Below are positions 9,296 to 52,244 of a stretch of DNA of 64,000 nt, one piece after another. A model generated the notes under the pieces. The model had not been told where the DNA came from. It saw only the letters and a list, made by a program, of their open reading frames with translations, and did not search any database. The translations under genes and the position numbers were made by a program. This stretch comes from Pseudolabrys sp. (GTDB lineage Bacteria > Pseudomonadota > Alphaproteobacteria > Rhizobiales > Xanthobacteraceae): NCBI GenBank assembly GCA_022843325.1, contig JALHNV010000008.1, forward strand, positions 5,665 to 69,664. Direction: 5' to 3'. Numbering within the stretch: position 1 is the first letter of the stretch; every line of letters starts with the position of its first letter.

Positions 9296-9844
9296 CTAGC
9301 GCACGACACCCGACAGGCAACATGGCTTGCGCCGGGGCGGCGTGATCCGGTCCTTGAGAAAGCAACGTGCGGTTTGGCCGATGTATCCGGGCCGGACATA
9401 GGTCCAGGCGCGACATTTGTTCTCACCCTCGCAGGCGGCCCTGCAGGCGGCTGCGGTCGGGTCAGGCGCCATGTCGAAATCGCGATAGTCGCCGCCGAGC
9501 CGGTCGATCGAGGATTCGATCGCGTTTGCGCGCGGCTCATCGACGGCGGCGCCGCGCACGCCGGAGACGCAGCATTTGGCGGCGACCGGTGGCGGCACGG
9601 ACGATTTCAGCCAGCAGGTGGCCTGCGCATTGGCGGTGCGCGGGTAGGAGAAGCTCCAGGCCCGGCAGCGCCCTTCGCGTTCGCAGCGCGATGCGCATTC
9701 CGCCGGATCGCCGCTCTTGACCGGGAAGCTGGCATAGTCACCGCCGCGGCGATCGAATCCCGATTGCGCGTGCGCGGAGCCGGTCAGCCCGACAACGGCA
9801 ACCGCCAGCAACCCGGCCAAAACATAAAAGAACCGCTTCCGCAT
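9296..9844 (-). CDS. Secreted tandem PAN/apple-domain protein
   Basis: Signal peptide, then two repeats of DRxGGDY...C...C...CRAW(S/T)...C(W/F)LK...CCxSGV. Confidence 0.85.
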   Translation of the reverse strand: MRKRFFYVLAGLLAVAVVGLTGSAHAQSGFDRRGGDYASFPVKSGDPAECASRCEREGRCRAWSFSYPRTANAQATCWLKSSVPPPVAAKCCVSGVRGAAVDEPRANAIESSIDRLGGDYRDFDMAPDPTAAACRAACEGENKCRAWTYVRPGYIGQTARCFLKDRITPPRRKPCCLSGVVR

Positions 9845-9943
9845 GCTTAACCGCCAGCCTGAGCCCAACGGCAGTATCGTAACGCAGGGGGACGATCCCG
9901 GCGCGCACATTCTCGGCATCGGTGATTGCAGGCGGAAAATTTT

Positions 9944-10037
9944 GCGCCCGCCGGAGGGGCCGGCGGGCGCTTGATCCGGCCGCGAGAGGGGATATTCGCG
10001 GCGGCGGATCGGGCGGCCGGCGAGAGGGCACCGGCCG
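9944..10037 (-). ncRNA. Candidate 3'-UTR-derived sRNA: three hairpins with C/U-rich loops (cuckoo/CcsR-like)
   Basis: Stems 10014-10037, 9973-10010 and 9944-9970 with minus-strand loops UGCCCUCUCG, AUAUCCCCUC and CCCCU, starting 11 nt after the DUF1127 stop. Confidence 0.5.
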
Positions 10038-10048
10038 TTTCGGTAAAC

Positions 10049-10420
10049 TCAGAAGGCGAGCCGCGCCGGCCGGTCGGTGGCCGGACGGCTGAAACCGCTC
10101 TCCGCCGCCGCGGGCTCCCGCGGCGCCAGCGCCGGGGCCGCCAGGACGCGGTTCATGCGGCGCTCGATGGCGCGCTCGCGCAACAGCGCGGTCGGGTCCT
10201 CCCAGAACGGTTCGGAGAAGGCATCCCGCACATCGGCGCGTGTCAGGCCGATGTCGGCGAGCATGTGGCGGTCCAGCGCCGCCAGCACCCGGGCATCGCG
10301 GCGGTTGCGCTGGGCCTGGGCCAGACGCTTGAGCCAGTGAGTCACCAGCGCGAGAACCGAGGCGAAGCCCCGCAGGAGAGTGCTGCCGGCGATCGGCAAA
10401 ACGGGAAAATGAACGGTCAT
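10049..10420 (-). CDS. DUF1127 (YjiS-like) domain protein
   Basis: RRDARVLAALDRHMLADIGLTRADV signature. Confidence 0.88.
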   Translation of the reverse strand: MTVHFPVLPIAGSTLLRGFASVLALVTHWLKRLAQAQRNRRDARVLAALDRHMLADIGLTRADVRDAFSEPFWEDPTALLRERAIERRMNRVLAAPALAPREPAAAESGFSRPATDRPARLAF

Positions 10421-10616
10421 GTCAGGCTCCATCAATCGCGGTTTGAAGCGGCAAATTCGCTGTGCCCGCCCACCGCAACCACCCGAAACCGGCACCCGAT
10501 TCCTGCGTGGTCGCGTCTGTATGCGCCGGGGCTATTGATTAGTGAAACGAATGTTTTTAATCTGATTGATCAGCAATAGTGATGCGGCGCCAAAGGCCGA
10601 AAATACGGATTTTCCC

Positions 10617-11495
10617 ATGACCGCCCTGCTCGACGTCGATCAGTTGCGCACCTTCATCGCCATCGCCGAAAGCGGCAGCTTCACGCGGGCCGCGGAGGTG
10701 GTGAACAAGACCCAGTCCGCCGTCTCGATGCAGATGAAGCGGCTGGAAGAGCGGCTGGAGCGGCCAATCTTTGCCCGCGACGGCCGCGCCTCGAAGCTCA
10801 CCGAAGACGGCCAACGCCTGCTCGATTACGCCCGCCGCATCGTCAAGCTGAACGTTGAAACCATCGCCGCCTTCTCCGACGCCGAACTGTCGGGCCGGGT
10901 GCGGCTGGGCGTGCCCGACGATTATGCCGACCGTTACCTGCCCGAGATCATGGCGCGCTTTTCCAGGGCCTACCCCGGCGTTGAACTGACCGTGATCTGC
11001 GAGCCGTCGGTCGATCTCCTGGAGCGCATCGACGCGCACGAGATCGATCTGGCCATCGTCACCAATTGCGACAGCAAGCGTCCGTCGGAGCCATTCCGCC
11101 GCGAGCGGCTGCTGTGGGTGACGTCGAACCGCCATCCGACCCATCTCGAAGAGCCGCTGCCGGTCGCACTGGGACGGCCGACCTGCAGCTGGCGGCGCAT
11201 TGCGATCGAGCGGCTGGAGGCGGTTGGACGGCCTCACCGCGTTTTGTATTCGAGTTCGAACGCCGGCGCGGTCGCGGCTGCAGTGCTGGCGGGCCTTGCG
11301 GTCTCGGTGCTGGCCGAATCCGGCTTGCGGCCCGGCATGCGCGTGCTGACGGCGGCGGAAGGTTTCCCCGAATTGCCGGCCTGCCGCGTCGGCCTGGTGC
11401 GCAGCCCGCACGAAGGCTCGACGCTGGCCGACGCCTTGGCCGAACACATCATCTCGTCGCTCGACAACCTGTCGGAAGCGCAGGCGGCGGAGTAG
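10617..11495 (+). CDS. LysR-family transcriptional regulator, divergent from DUF1127
   Basis: GSFTRAAEVVNKTQSAVSMQMKRLEE HTH plus substrate-binding domain; AT-rich intergenic segment 10530-10580 is a plausible operator region. Confidence 0.93.
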   Translation: MTALLDVDQLRTFIAIAESGSFTRAAEVVNKTQSAVSMQMKRLEERLERPIFARDGRASKLTEDGQRLLDYARRIVKLNVETIAAFSDAELSGRVRLGVPDDYADRYLPEIMARFSRAYPGVELTVICEPSVDLLERIDAHEIDLAIVTNCDSKRPSEPFRRERLLWVTSNRHPTHLEEPLPVALGRPTCSWRRIAIERLEAVGRPHRVLYSSSNAGAVAAAVLAGLAVSVLAESGLRPGMRVLTAAEGFPELPACRVGLVRSPHEGSTLADALAEHIISSLDNLSEAQAAE

Positions 11496-11535: not shown

Positions 11536-12006
11536 TCAGCAAATCTCGGCCGCCTTGGCGTCCAGCACCCGCACCACATCCGCCGGCGCCAGTTCGACCT
11601 GCAAGCCGCGCCGGCCGCCGTTGACGACGATGCGCTCGAAGGCAAGCGTCGACTGCTCGATGAACACCCGCGCCCGCTTCTTCTGGCCGAAGGCCGATAT
11701 GCCGCCGACGTGATAGCCGGTAATGCGCTCGGCCTCCGCCGCACCGAGCATCGCCGCGCTCTTGGCGCCGGCTGCGGCGGCGAGCTTCTTCAGGTTCACC
11801 TCGCGATCGGACGGTGCCAGCACGCACACGACGTCATTGCCCGCCTTGGCCATCAAGGTTTTCAACAGCCGGGCCGGCTCGATGCCCAGCGCCTCGGCGG
11901 CCTGCATGCCGATGCGCTCGGCGTTCGGGTCGTAGTCATATTCGTGCAGACGGAAGGCGACTTTGGCCTTCTCGAGCGCGAGCGTGGCGGGCGTGGATTT
12001 GGCCAT
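11536..12006 (-). CDS. ybaK: Cys-tRNA(Pro) deacylase
   Basis: LLKTL, TGYHVGGISAFGQKK, NGGRRGLQVEL. Confidence 0.92.
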   Translation of the reverse strand: MAKSTPATLALEKAKVAFRLHEYDYDPNAERIGMQAAEALGIEPARLLKTLMAKAGNDVVCVLAPSDREVNLKKLAAAAGAKSAAMLGAAEAERITGYHVGGISAFGQKKRARVFIEQSTLAFERIVVNGGRRGLQVELAPADVVRVLDAKAAEIC

Positions 12007-12025
12007 TGGCGCTTACCCCGTATCT

Positions 12026-12110
12026 CGTCATGGCCGGCCTTGTCCCGGCCATCCATGACTTACTTCGGATCAGCAAGACGTGGATGCCCGGCACAAGGCC
12101 GGGCATGACG
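12026..12110. repeat. REP-like double-hairpin element (family A)
   Basis: CGTCATGGCCGGCCTTGTCCCGGCCATCCA...TGGATGCCCGGCACAAGGCCGGGCATGACG; related copies at 17456, 22499 and 48924. Confidence 0.88.
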
Positions 12111-12136
12111 GCGGAGAGACCGGCGCTCGCCGCCCC

Positions 12137-13507
12137 TCAATACATATAGTCTTCGTAAATGCGGTCGACATTGCCGCCCCACTCGCCGTGGTACTTCTCG
12201 AGCAATTCCTCGGCCGGCGTGATGCCGCGCGCGATCGATTCCTCCAGCGGCCGCAGATAGCGCGTCTCGTCGCGGCCGTTGCGGTCGAGATTCTTGCGCC
12301 GCGCCAAGCCGCGCGAGGCCAGCCGCAGCGTTTCCTGCGCCAGCGTCAGGACGTTGCGGCCGCGGATCTCGGCCTTGAAGCCGAGCTTCGGCACGTCGTC
12401 GCGCAACTTCTGCCGCTCTTCGGCGGTCCAGTCCTTGACCATGTCCCAGCAGGCGTTGAGCGCATCGTCGTCGTAGAACAGGCCGACCCAATAGGCCGAC
12501 AGCGACGGCAGCCGGCGCCACGGTCCGCCGTCGGCGCCGCGCATTTCCAGATACCGCTTCAGCCGCACCTCGGGAAAAATCGTGCTGAGGTGATTGGCCC
12601 AGTCGGAAATGGTCGGCCGCTCGCCCGGCAGTACGTCGAGCTTGCCGGCGAAGAAGTCCTTGAAGGACTTGCCCGAGACGTCGATGTAGCTGTCGCCGCG
12701 CTTGATGAAATACATCGGCACGCCGAGCGCGTAGTCGACATAGCGCTCGAAGCCCATGCCGTCTTCGAACGTCCACGGCAGCATGCCGGCGCGGTTGTTG
12801 TCGGTGTCGGTCCAGATCTGCGAGCGCATCGACAGGAAGCCGTTCGGCTTGCCTTCGGTGAACGGCGAATTGGCGAACAGCGCGGTGGCGACCGGCTGCA
12901 ACGCCAGTGACACGCGCAACTTTTTCACCATGTCGGCTTCGGAGGAGAAGTCGAGGTTCGCCTGCACCGTGCAGGTCCGGTACATCATGTCGAGGCCGTA
13001 GGAGCCGACCTTCGGCATGTAATTGGTCATGATCTTGTAGCGGCCTTTCGGCATGACCGGCATATCGTCCCGGCTCCAGTTCGGCGTCATGCCGAGGCCG
13101 AGAAAGCCGATGCCGAGCGGCTTGGCGACTTCGCGCACCTGCGCCAGATGGGCGAACAATTCGGACGCGGTCTGGTGCACGGTCTCGACCGGCGCGCCGG
13201 ACAGTTCGAACTGGCCGCCCGGCTCCAGCGAGATCGCGCCGCCGCCGGTGACGTCGAACATGCCGATGATGTTCTCGCCCTCCATGATCGGCTCCCAGCC
13301 GAGCAAGGTGTGCATGCCTTCCAGCAGCGCGTGGATGCTGCGCCGGCCTGAATAAGGCACGGGGCGATGGCCTTCGATGGTGAAGGCGAATTTCTCATGC
13401 TCGGTGCCGACGCGGAACTGCGCCTTCGGCTTGCAGCCCGCTGCGAGCCAGGCGACGAGTTCGTCGCGTGTCTCGATGGGGGTCATGTCGATCTGGTCGC
13501 GCGCCAT
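12137..13507 (-). CDS. gshA: Glutamate--cysteine ligase (alphaproteobacterial/plant type)
   Basis: GTEHEKF, SLEPGGQFELSG, TCTVQANLD, FPEVRLKRYLEMRGAD. Confidence 0.95.
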   Translation of the reverse strand: MARDQIDMTPIETRDELVAWLAAGCKPKAQFRVGTEHEKFAFTIEGHRPVPYSGRRSIHALLEGMHTLLGWEPIMEGENIIGMFDVTGGGAISLEPGGQFELSGAPVETVHQTASELFAHLAQVREVAKPLGIGFLGLGMTPNWSRDDMPVMPKGRYKIMTNYMPKVGSYGLDMMYRTCTVQANLDFSSEADMVKKLRVSLALQPVATALFANSPFTEGKPNGFLSMRSQIWTDTDNNRAGMLPWTFEDGMGFERYVDYALGVPMYFIKRGDSYIDVSGKSFKDFFAGKLDVLPGERPTISDWANHLSTIFPEVRLKRYLEMRGADGGPWRRLPSLSAYWVGLFYDDDALNACWDMVKDWTAEERQKLRDDVPKLGFKAEIRGRNVLTLAQETLRLASRGLARRKNLDRNGRDETRYLRPLEESIARGITPAEELLEKYHGEWGGNVDRIYEDYMY

Positions 13508-51995: not shown

Positions 51996-52032
51996 AAAAC
52001 AAAGAAGGGCCGCCCACACGGGGCAGCCCTTC
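51996..52032 (-). terminator. Intrinsic terminator of a minus-strand small transcript
   Basis: Minus strand GAAGGGCTGCCC-cgtgt-GGGCGGCCCTTC followed by TTTGTTTT. Confidence 0.75.
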
Positions 52033-52071
52033 CATTGTCGAACCGCAGTCCGTGGACCGGACTGAAATGGC

Positions 52072-52149
52072 TTACGCCACGCTAAGTCCCACCGAGGCGA
52101 GAACCCAGGTCACGGATGCCGACGGCTGCGGCGATAGACAATGAGACAC
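52072..52149 (-). CDS. 25-aa small ORF (fM-SHCLSPQPSASVTWVLASVGLSVA) with an extreme Shine-Dalgarno
   Basis: GTG preceded by AGAAAGGAGGTGATCCA; GGAGG is 7 nt from the start; terminator downstream. Confidence 0.6.
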   Translation of the reverse strand: MSHCLSPQPSASVTWVLASVGLSVA

Positions 52150-52244
52150 TGGATCACCTCCTTTCTGAATGTTGACGACACAATCAAGGTAAGGTGTTCG
52201 CCGCGATTTGGAAGTGGCAAATTGCGGCAGGCGCACCGGAATTT

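Follow-up and report, generated by a model that had tools for sequence, protein, structure and literature searches.

A conserved three-hairpin RNA behind a long DUF1127 gene of Pseudolabrys and other Xanthobacteraceae, and its possible relationship to the ar14/cuckoo RNAs

Introduction

Three consecutive GC-rich hairpins are found directly behind a DUF1127 gene in a genome of the soil bacterium Pseudolabrys sp. (Rhizobiales; Xanthobacteraceae). This raises the question of whether they are an accident of palindromic sequence, the plain 3′ end of an mRNA, or a small RNA (sRNA) with a function of its own. The DNA analysed, termed the window, is a stretch of 64,000 nucleotides (GenBank assembly GCA_022843325.1, contig JALHNV010000008.1, positions 5,665 to 69,664 of the forward strand); coordinates below are those of the window. 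An initial annotation proposed that the hairpins expose anti-Shine-Dalgarno loops and form a cuckoo/CcsR-like sRNA that is controlled by a divergent LysR-type gene and targets ribosome-binding sites.

On the DUF1127 strand, the element forms a structured RNA that is real, under selection and present in a single copy. The data presented here concern its structure, covariation, loop conservation, copy number, strand, linkage to a gene pair and similarity to ar14. In addition, it is on balance probable that the long-DUF1127 mRNA has as its last ∼100 nt a conserved RNA of three hairpins that terminates at the third of them, carries C/U-rich seeds, is driven by a LysR-type transcriptional regulator (LTTR), and is released and acts in trans. 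It would represent a diverged, Xanthobacteraceae-wide offshoot of the ar14/cuckoo RNAs.

Structure of the element

The gene, the element and its parts are as follows.

10049..10420, minus strand: long DUF1127 gene, 123 amino acids (aa), stop codon included in the coordinates; domain at residues 32-65 (Pfam PF06568, E = 1.5e-8)
10051-10049, minus strand: DUF1127 stop codon, TGA
10038..10048, minus strand: linker GUUUACCGAAA, 11 nt, single-stranded, between the stop codon and hairpin 1
10037-9944, minus strand: three-hairpin element, behind the DUF1127 gene
10014..10037, minus strand: hairpin 1 (H1), stem CGGCCGG/CCGGCCG of 7 bp, loop UGCCCUCUCG with the core CCCUCUC
9973..10010, minus strand: hairpin 2 (H2), outer helix GAUCCG/CGGAUC and inner helix GCCGCGA/UCGCGGC, 6+7 bp, loop AUAUCCCCUC
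9944..9970, minus strand: hairpin 3 (H3), perfect GC-rich stem of 11 bp, loop CCCCU; likely intrinsic terminator stem
9934..9943, minus strand: tail AAAAUUUUCC, 3′ of H3, a weak U-tract in this genome

The Pfam match bears out the annotation of the upstream open reading frame (ORF) as DUF1127. Three consecutive GC hairpins had been placed on the minus strand 11 nt past its stop codon, and both the coordinates and the predicted fold agree. The stem lengths originally given hold for H1 (7 bp) and for H3 (11 bp, perfect), but H2 is 6+7 bp and not 7+5 bp. H1 measures 24 nt, its loop being 10 nt here and 7-9 nt in most congeners, and it has two extra pairs in the minimum-energy fold. The 38-nt H2 likewise has a loop of 10 nt, and the 27-nt H3 one of just 5 nt. 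Linkers of 3 and 2 nt separate the hairpins. The minimum free energy of a 136-nt stretch is −67.7 kcal/mol, and the fold consists of these three hairpins alone, with no alternative anti-terminator pairing evident. By comparison, 200 dinucleotide shuffles gave −49.2 ± 3.7 kcal/mol (z = −5.0), and none of the 200 was as good.

The AAAC immediately 5′ of H1 is conserved at ≥90%, and the RNA may be processed at, or begin in, the linker GUUUACCGAAA. At the other end of the element, H3 was not called by a strict terminator scan because the U-tract is short (four U after four A). Most orthologues have U-richer tails after H3 than this genome. G-U pairs and the U-rich tail are consistent only with the DUF1127 strand.

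Conservation and copy number

An orthologue of the DUF1127 gene is present in 35 of the 36 congeners searched. These 35 and the window's own genome provide 36 Pseudolabrys loci, and the element is directly behind the orthologous gene in all 36. A motif scan shows at least 119 genome stretches with the two-loop motif pattern. Mean pairwise nucleotide identity of the element over the 36 loci is 84.8%; identity is 32% in the 110 nt upstream and 28% in the 110 nt downstream, and that of the protein is 52.7%. The RNA is thus an island of conservation. Its length differs by 1-2 nt among congeners, and this variation together with the stem covariation described below rules out a coding role.

Two covariance models were built, R1 from the Pseudolabrys elements and R2 from the whole family; neither contains outgroup sequence. 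When the 3.88-Mb assembly is searched with the element by BLAST, the element alone is recovered, and the sole R1 match in the genome at E ≤ 0.001 is the window locus. The family model R2 adds a weak 40.9-bit match, which is a plain terminator on another contig.

Palindromes that resemble miniature inverted-repeat transposable elements (MITEs), ∼55-65 nt in length (e.g. GCGCATGATC...GATCATGCGC), are found inserted between the DUF1127 stop codon and the element, which is undisturbed. They occur in six Pseudolabrys loci (L016, L017 with two copies, L018, L022, L023 and L040).

Might the hairpins themselves be a dispersed palindromic repeat of the REP or MITE type, or a chance cluster of GC-rich palindromes? 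The genome does have palindromic mobile elements, and the congeners just mentioned have MITE-like inserts beside the element. On the other side are the single BLAST copy and the single R1 match, which rule out a dispersed repeat, and the constant position of the element, which occupies the same locus in all 36 species as well as outside the genus. The initial annotation had named dispersal as an outcome fatal to its proposal; the element is instead single copy and syntenic, and an origin as a repeat or as a chance cluster has a negligible probability.

Within Pseudolabrys the stems are near-invariant and covariation is modest (5 of 28 pairs); the closing pair of H1 covaries from A-U to G-C. 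A wider comparison is offered by the Xanthobacteraceae, where the long DUF1127 gene is found in 34 of 62 genera. R1 locates the element behind this gene in ∼25 of 26 non-Pseudolabrys loci, at 26-66 bits. In a 32-sequence alignment, which was model-fitted so that the covariation figures carry that caveat, standard pairs occupy 97.5% of cells versus 34-44% when partners are slid by 1-3 columns, and compensatory changes are seen in 18 of the 28 pairs versus 8.0 ± 1.6 in shuffles. Covariation in orthologous 3′ untranslated regions (UTRs), which the initial annotation had suggested as a check, is therefore present. Across the family, five of the seven H1 pairs and all 10 pairs of the two H2 helices show compensatory change. 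The H3 stem is almost invariant, and its C-G to U-A and U-G changes are compatible with the minus strand only.

The loop consensus of the 36 Pseudolabrys loci is CCCUCUC / UCCCCUC / CCCCU. The UCCCCUC core of the H2 loop is kept in 29-32 of the 32 aligned sequences. In the H1 loop, Pseudolabrys has CCCUCUC and most other genera have CUCCC(A). Loops that drift over freely varying stems would have counted against a functional RNA; the opposite is observed, with loops fixed while stems covary. The loops had been described as anti-Shine-Dalgarno. They are indeed C/U-rich and conserved, but in Pseudolabrys they are not of the 16S-like CCUCC type, and the term is therefore approximate.

Relationship to ar14/cuckoo and other small RNAs

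A permissive Rfam scan yields one meaningful match to the element, that of ar14 (RF02344). The match is full-length, on the same strand, and has 30.5 bits (E = 0.0032). The window element does not reach the ar14 gathering score of 58.8 bits, and the model search proposed in the initial annotation thus finds the anticipated family, but below its cut-off. Full-length sub-threshold ar14 matches are also found in 25 relatives among congeners and sister genera (26-45 bits), and the ar14 model aligns in the same register in every orthologue. Elsewhere in the genome nothing above 25 bits was obtained with ar14, in a scan whose pre-filter also missed the window's own 30.5-bit site.

Other Rfam families were considered. 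The CcsR1 model (RF02791) has no match in the window region at E ≤ 10. The ar15 (AbcR) model likewise has no match in the region at E ≤ 10, and the mmgR/suhB model (RF00519) has none in the window; bona fide mmgR (69-74 bits) is present at other loci in Pseudolabrys genomes. Accordingly, CcsR1, ar15/AbcR and mmgR identities are ruled out.

Cuckoo RNAs are defined as 2-4 adjacent hairpins without multiloops, joined by linkers of ≤10 nt and having helices of ≥6 bp, hairpins of 24-50 nt and loops of 9-27 nt, with CCUCCUCCC or a listed variant in every loop (Reinkensmeier & Giegerich 2015, PMC4615179). Their range, from 2,680 genomes screened, is given as Rhodobacteraceae, Rhizobiaceae, Brucellaceae, Phyllobacteriaceae and one Hyphomicrobiaceae genome (PMC4615179). 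The CIN1 neighbourhood is marked by adjacency to an orthologous DUF1127 gene, OG1, of the CcaF1 type (PMC4615179, PMC8034643).

The element has the hairpin number, linkers (3 and 2 nt) and helices (7, 6+7 and 11 bp) of a cuckoo RNA. CCUCCUCCC is absent from UGCCCUCUCG, AUAUCCCCUC and CCCCU, and the loop consensus of congeners and sister genera is also different; the 5-nt loop of H3 falls outside the 9-27 nt range. The element adjoins a same-strand DUF1127 gene, but this is the long paralogue, and the CcaF1-like gene of the genome is on another contig. Thus, of the proposed cuckoo/CcsR-like identity there remains that ar14/cuckoo is the closest known family; the element lacks CCUCCUCCC, the Rfam gathering score and the loop size of that family.

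R1 and R2 were each searched against 400 genomes of the order. R1 has four outgroup matches, all immediately behind small CcaF1-like DUF1127 ORFs. In two of the four, CCUCCUCCC occurs in every loop and a trmFO-like gene follows, as in the published CIN1 neighbourhood. Apart from the window locus itself, R2 matches 21 sites, of which two are in the same genome. Seven of the 21, in other families, are ar14 above the gathering score (59-78 bits), several more are ar14-like below it, and nine are situated ≤54 nt behind a small DUF1127 ORF. DUF1127 genes are few in each genome searched (two in this genome), and therefore the enrichment cannot be chance. The ar14 scores form a continuum that runs from 78 bits in canonical members down to 26 in this family.

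How does the element compare with the best-known members of these families? The ar14/NfeR1 RNAs (RF02344) are three-hairpin (HP3) cuckoo RNAs of Rhizobiaceae, Brucellaceae and Phyllobacteriaceae. The element shares with them three adjacent hairpins, a length of ∼100-120 nt, and C-rich loops in all three hairpins, the third of which is a terminator with a C-rich loop. It differs in having the loops CCCUCUC / UCCCCUC / CCCCU rather than CCUCCUCCC and a score of about half the gathering threshold. It is also present in one copy per genome and in Xanthobacteraceae, beyond the range reported for the family (PMC4615179). NfeR1 has its own promoter (PMC7143759), whereas the element shows no conserved promoter of its own.

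CcsR1-4 of Rhodobacter (Cereibacter) sphaeroides (RF02791, CIN1) provides a second parallel, as it is a same-strand, C-rich-loop hairpin RNA in the 3′ UTR of a DUF1127 gene, ccaF1, and has a terminator end. CcsR1-4 consists of four two-hairpin units and the element of one three-hairpin unit. In addition, the CcsR partner is CcaF1 and not a 123-aa paralogue, and CcsR1-4 is controlled by RpoHI/HII, unlike the element, which presumably is under an LTTR. MmgR/suhB (ar8, RF00519) resembles the element in being a small alphaproteobacterial RNA with an anti-Shine-Dalgarno-like loop and a terminator, but the window has no match to its model and mmgR genes are at other loci.

The DUF1127 partner gene

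The long DUF1127 protein has ∼30-39% identity to small CcaF1-like DUF1127 proteins over ∼40 aa. The CcaF1-like DUF1127 protein of this genome is 44-54% identical to the cuckoo-linked ones. Its gene is on another contig.

Contig C23:15307-15411 (L176): second DUF1127 gene, short, CcaF1-like, with a plain 14-bp terminator behind it

This second gene was considered as a host of a cuckoo RNA and ruled out, as it is followed by the plain terminator only and no C-rich hairpins.

In one outgroup genome (G344), a canonical ar14 locus and a LysR-long-DUF1127 pair are both present. A different three-hairpin RNA with CCCUC-type loops is situated behind the orthologous long DUF1127 gene of this genome, which is from another family (L208, 3011-3190). 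That RNA has an mmgR score of 37-38 bits versus a cut-off of 41, and a bona fide mmgR is found elsewhere in the genome.

These comparisons bear on whether the element descends from ar14 at all. It could instead belong to an independent, convergent RNA family that is cuckoo-like in action and has no ar14 ancestry, the matches arising from GC-rich hairpins, C-rich loops and a generic terminator. In line with this, the ar14 scores reach only about half of the gathering value, GCCCGCCGG-type terminators are frequent (e.g. the C23 terminator and L001), the DUF1127 partner is another paralogue, and positional orthologues in outgroup LysR-DUF1127 loci are not ar14-like. Descent is favoured by the full-length, same-register ar14 alignment in every orthologue and by the family-model matches, of which nine of 21 are directly behind DUF1127 genes and seven are true ar14. 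The run of ar14 scores from 78 to 26 bits across lineages also speaks for descent, as does the CGCGA/UCGCG inner stem of H2, which the element has in common with the ar14 of L174. Convergence without ancestry is possible, though somewhat doubtful. By these sequence comparisons the element appears to be a diverged relative or variant of the ar14/cuckoo kind and not a canonical member, and some convergence may have contributed.

The divergent LysR gene and its putative operator

The DUF1127 gene is flanked upstream by a divergent regulator gene, and a conserved block lies in the intergenic region.

10617..11495, plus strand: LysR-type regulator, LrhA-like, 292 aa from the ATG at 10617; Pfam HTH_1 and LysR_substrate
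10518..10585, minus strand: conserved intergenic block, putative operator/promoter
10583-10569, minus strand: ATC-N9-GAT box
10562-10537, minus strand: dyad GATTAAAAACATTCGTTTCACTAATC
10547-10542 and 10523-10518, minus strand: candidate −35 TTTCAC and −10 CATACA, with an 18-nt spacer

The Pfam domains agree with the annotation of the divergent gene as LysR-type. Its best NCBIfam and PDB relatives are LrhA (E = 1e-43). Wherever the flank is long enough (64 of 65 loci), the protein is 73-93% identical and its gene is divergently adjacent to DUF1127. Outgroup families have an orthologue of 63% identity that is likewise divergent to a long DUF1127 gene. In the intergenic block, the core AAACATTCGTT and its flanks hardly vary in 63 of the 65 family loci and can still be recognised in four loci from outgroups. 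A strict sigma-70 consensus scan found nothing in this block. ATC-N9-GAT, with its T-N11-A, is the classic LTTR operator architecture, and the LTTR-box and promoter positions listed are putative assignments by analogy to it. The combination of a conserved block with this layout makes LysR control a reasonable inference. At the sequence level, the regulation originally proposed is thus plausible, as both the regulator and its ATC-N9-GAT box are co-conserved.

VtlR/LsrB is an LTTR that activates small DUF1127 genes and the AbcR sRNAs in Brucella and Agrobacterium (PMC7486931, PMC12595884). The AbcR1/2 (ar15)-VtlR/LsrB system therefore resembles the present one, in that a LysR regulator is tied to DUF1127 genes and to an sRNA with a C-rich seed. 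The AbcR seed CUCCCA (PMC5461406) occurs in the H1 loop of most non-Pseudolabrys relatives. However, lsrB is in an operon with trxB (PMC11975290) and the VtlR box is GCAT-N3-TG-N3-T (PMC7486931), whereas the LysR gene here has DUF1127 and ybaK-like genes as neighbours, not trxB, and its operator is ATC-N9-GAT. In addition, LsrB of A. tumefaciens (PDB 9HH1) matches the protein only at E = 2.8e-12, compared with 1e-43 for LrhA. Identity with VtlR/LsrB is ruled out by the weak match, the lack of a trxB operon and the different box. Adjoining the LysR gene, at 11536-13507 on the minus strand, are ORFs that by eye appear YbaK/EbsC-type deacylase-like and plant-type glutamate-cysteine ligase-like, which would give the LTTR a redox-related neighbour.

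The regulator, the long DUF1127 gene and the 3′-UTR RNA might together constitute an ancient cassette of the Hyphomicrobiales, distinct from the CcaF1-CcsR/ar14 systems. One LTTR-controlled transcript would then give both an RNA-binding protein and the sRNA that it matures or chaperones, and DUF1127 paralogues would repeatedly have co-evolved with private anti-Shine-Dalgarno RNAs. This is put forward tentatively and is itself rather doubtful. If it is true, the H1 loop shift from CUCCC(A) to CCCUCUC in Pseudolabrys represents a retargeting of the seed.

Transcription and mode of action

A sigma-70 scan finds no promoter of the element itself, and the 110 nt upstream are unconserved. As insertions there are also tolerated, the RNA is most likely the 3′ end of the DUF1127 mRNA. 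Its position in the DUF1127 3′ UTR, its strand and its terminator are as in the CcsR locus, where RNase E cuts CcsR from the ccaF1 3′ UTR and CcaF1 modulates this cleavage (PMC8034643); co-transcription and processing are thereby suggested for the element as well.

The following sequence of events is proposed. The LrhA-like LysR protein would bind the ATC-N9-GAT operator and drive the DUF1127 promoter, and the transcript would terminate at H3. The hairpin block would persist, probably after endonucleolytic release at the A-rich linker, by analogy to CcsR. The C-rich loops (CCCUCUC, UCCCCUC and CCCCU) could then pair in trans with Shine-Dalgarno-like GAGGG and AGGGGA sequences of selected mRNAs. 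This step is modelled on NfeR1/ar14, whose three anti-Shine-Dalgarno loops pair with translation-initiation regions (PMC7143759). DUF1127 proteins bind RNA (PMC8034643), and the co-encoded protein possibly aids maturation or stability of the RNA. Co-transcription, processing, action in trans, LysR control and the role of DUF1127 are what we infer in this scheme.

GAGGG and GGGGA peak at Shine-Dalgarno positions in this genome. A crude target scan gives 47 sites near ribosome-binding sites with ≥8 nt of complementarity. Two LivK-like binding-protein genes are included, and in one of these the AGGGGA Shine-Dalgarno sequence is kept in ∼19 of 22 orthologues. Inspection by eye shows no convincing loop complementarity to the DUF1127 or LysR ribosome-binding sites in cis.

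The element might instead work purely in cis, as a 3′ UTR with a terminator and with hairpins that shield the DUF1127 mRNA from 3′ exonucleases, perhaps also as an autoregulatory platform for DUF1127, and have no targets in trans. H3, the most invariant part, is terminator-like, the element is always attached to the DUF1127 gene, no separate promoter is apparent, and RNA binding by DUF1127 proteins (PMC8034643) would suit such a platform. But plain stabilisers need no conservation of loops across genera while stems covary, and the architecture and context are those of trans-acting RNAs (ar14/NfeR1, CcsR). The tolerance of MITE inserts between coding sequence and element also argues against a tight coupling to the coding part. 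A cis-only role is thus unlikely.

Several observations weigh against a released, trans-acting RNA of ar14 descent. The H3 loop is only 5 nt and, although C-rich, is variable outside the genus. The Pseudolabrys loops differ from 16S-like CCUCC, which leaves the anti-Shine-Dalgarno label approximate, and the U-tract of four U after four A is weak in this genome. The partner is a DUF1127 paralogue other than CcaF1. In outgroup genomes, the RNA that follows the orthologous long DUF1127 gene reaches no more than 14-17 bits with R1, and part of the similarity to ar14 could therefore stem from convergence and from generic GC-rich terminators. Finally, the target candidates are anecdotal and fit the hypothesis without discriminating, and are too weak for any target to be claimed.

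The downstream gene and other features of the window

A further gene is found downstream of the element on the same strand.

9296..9844, minus strand: PAN-domain secreted protein gene (Pfam PAN_4, E = 6e-35); a frequent, not obligatory neighbour

A same-strand PAN-domain gene follows the element in 34 of the loci examined; several element-bearing loci are without it and have a convergent gene instead. In many congeners the spacer between H3 and the PAN gene contains a promoter-like TGCACA-N17-TA(G/A/C)CAT, within ...GTGCGTTAnCATG. At 9845-9943 of the window, only the CTGCGTTACGAT part of this motif is retained.

The frequent presence of this gene, along with the weak U-tract in this genome, could suggest a role as a regulated terminator or leader, by which read-through from DUF1127 into the PAN-domain gene would be controlled. 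Yet the element is unchanged at L021, L028 and L048, where another gene or a convergent one follows, the PAN gene of many congeners is preceded by a separate promoter-like motif (TGCACA-N17-TAnCAT), and the fold shows no evident alternative pairing that could act as an anti-terminator. Control of read-through is therefore very unlikely.

In a locus from another genus of the family (L193, ∼957-1246), a group II intron (RF02001, 132 bits; RF01998, 63 bits) is found ∼80 nt downstream of the element. Some bacterial group II introns home behind terminator hairpins, and this would fit H3 as a terminator.

Another RNA match occurs elsewhere in the window.

52006-52173, minus strand: match to the Rfam CC2171 sRNA, 82.3 bits versus a threshold of 75

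This RNA starts with AGAAAGGAGGUGAUCCAG, which is perfectly complementary to the 16S rRNA 3′ end over 18 nt (the assembly itself is without a 16S gene). AGAAAGGAGGUGAUCCAG is directly followed by GUG and an open frame of ∼25 codons. In this it is similar to small mRNAs of Bradyrhizobiaceae that have an extended Shine-Dalgarno sequence.

Concluding remarks

Reports of cuckoo/ar14/CcsR RNAs and of their link to DUF1127 proteins have been confined to Rhodobacteraceae, Rhizobiaceae, Brucellaceae and Phyllobacteriaceae, with a single genome from Hyphomicrobiaceae (PMC4615179, PMC8034643). The present locus extends the pairing of DUF1127 with a C-rich-hairpin RNA to the Xanthobacteraceae, with another paralogue, a changed loop motif, and a conserved LrhA-like regulator that has a clear operator. 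The family is missed both by the Rfam ar14 threshold and by a matcher based on CCUCCUCCC. A second, independent DUF1127-RNA pairing suggests that the pairing is functional and not accidental. The locus also offers a compact regulator/protein/RNA system for studying the part that DUF1127 proteins play towards the RNAs encoded beside them.

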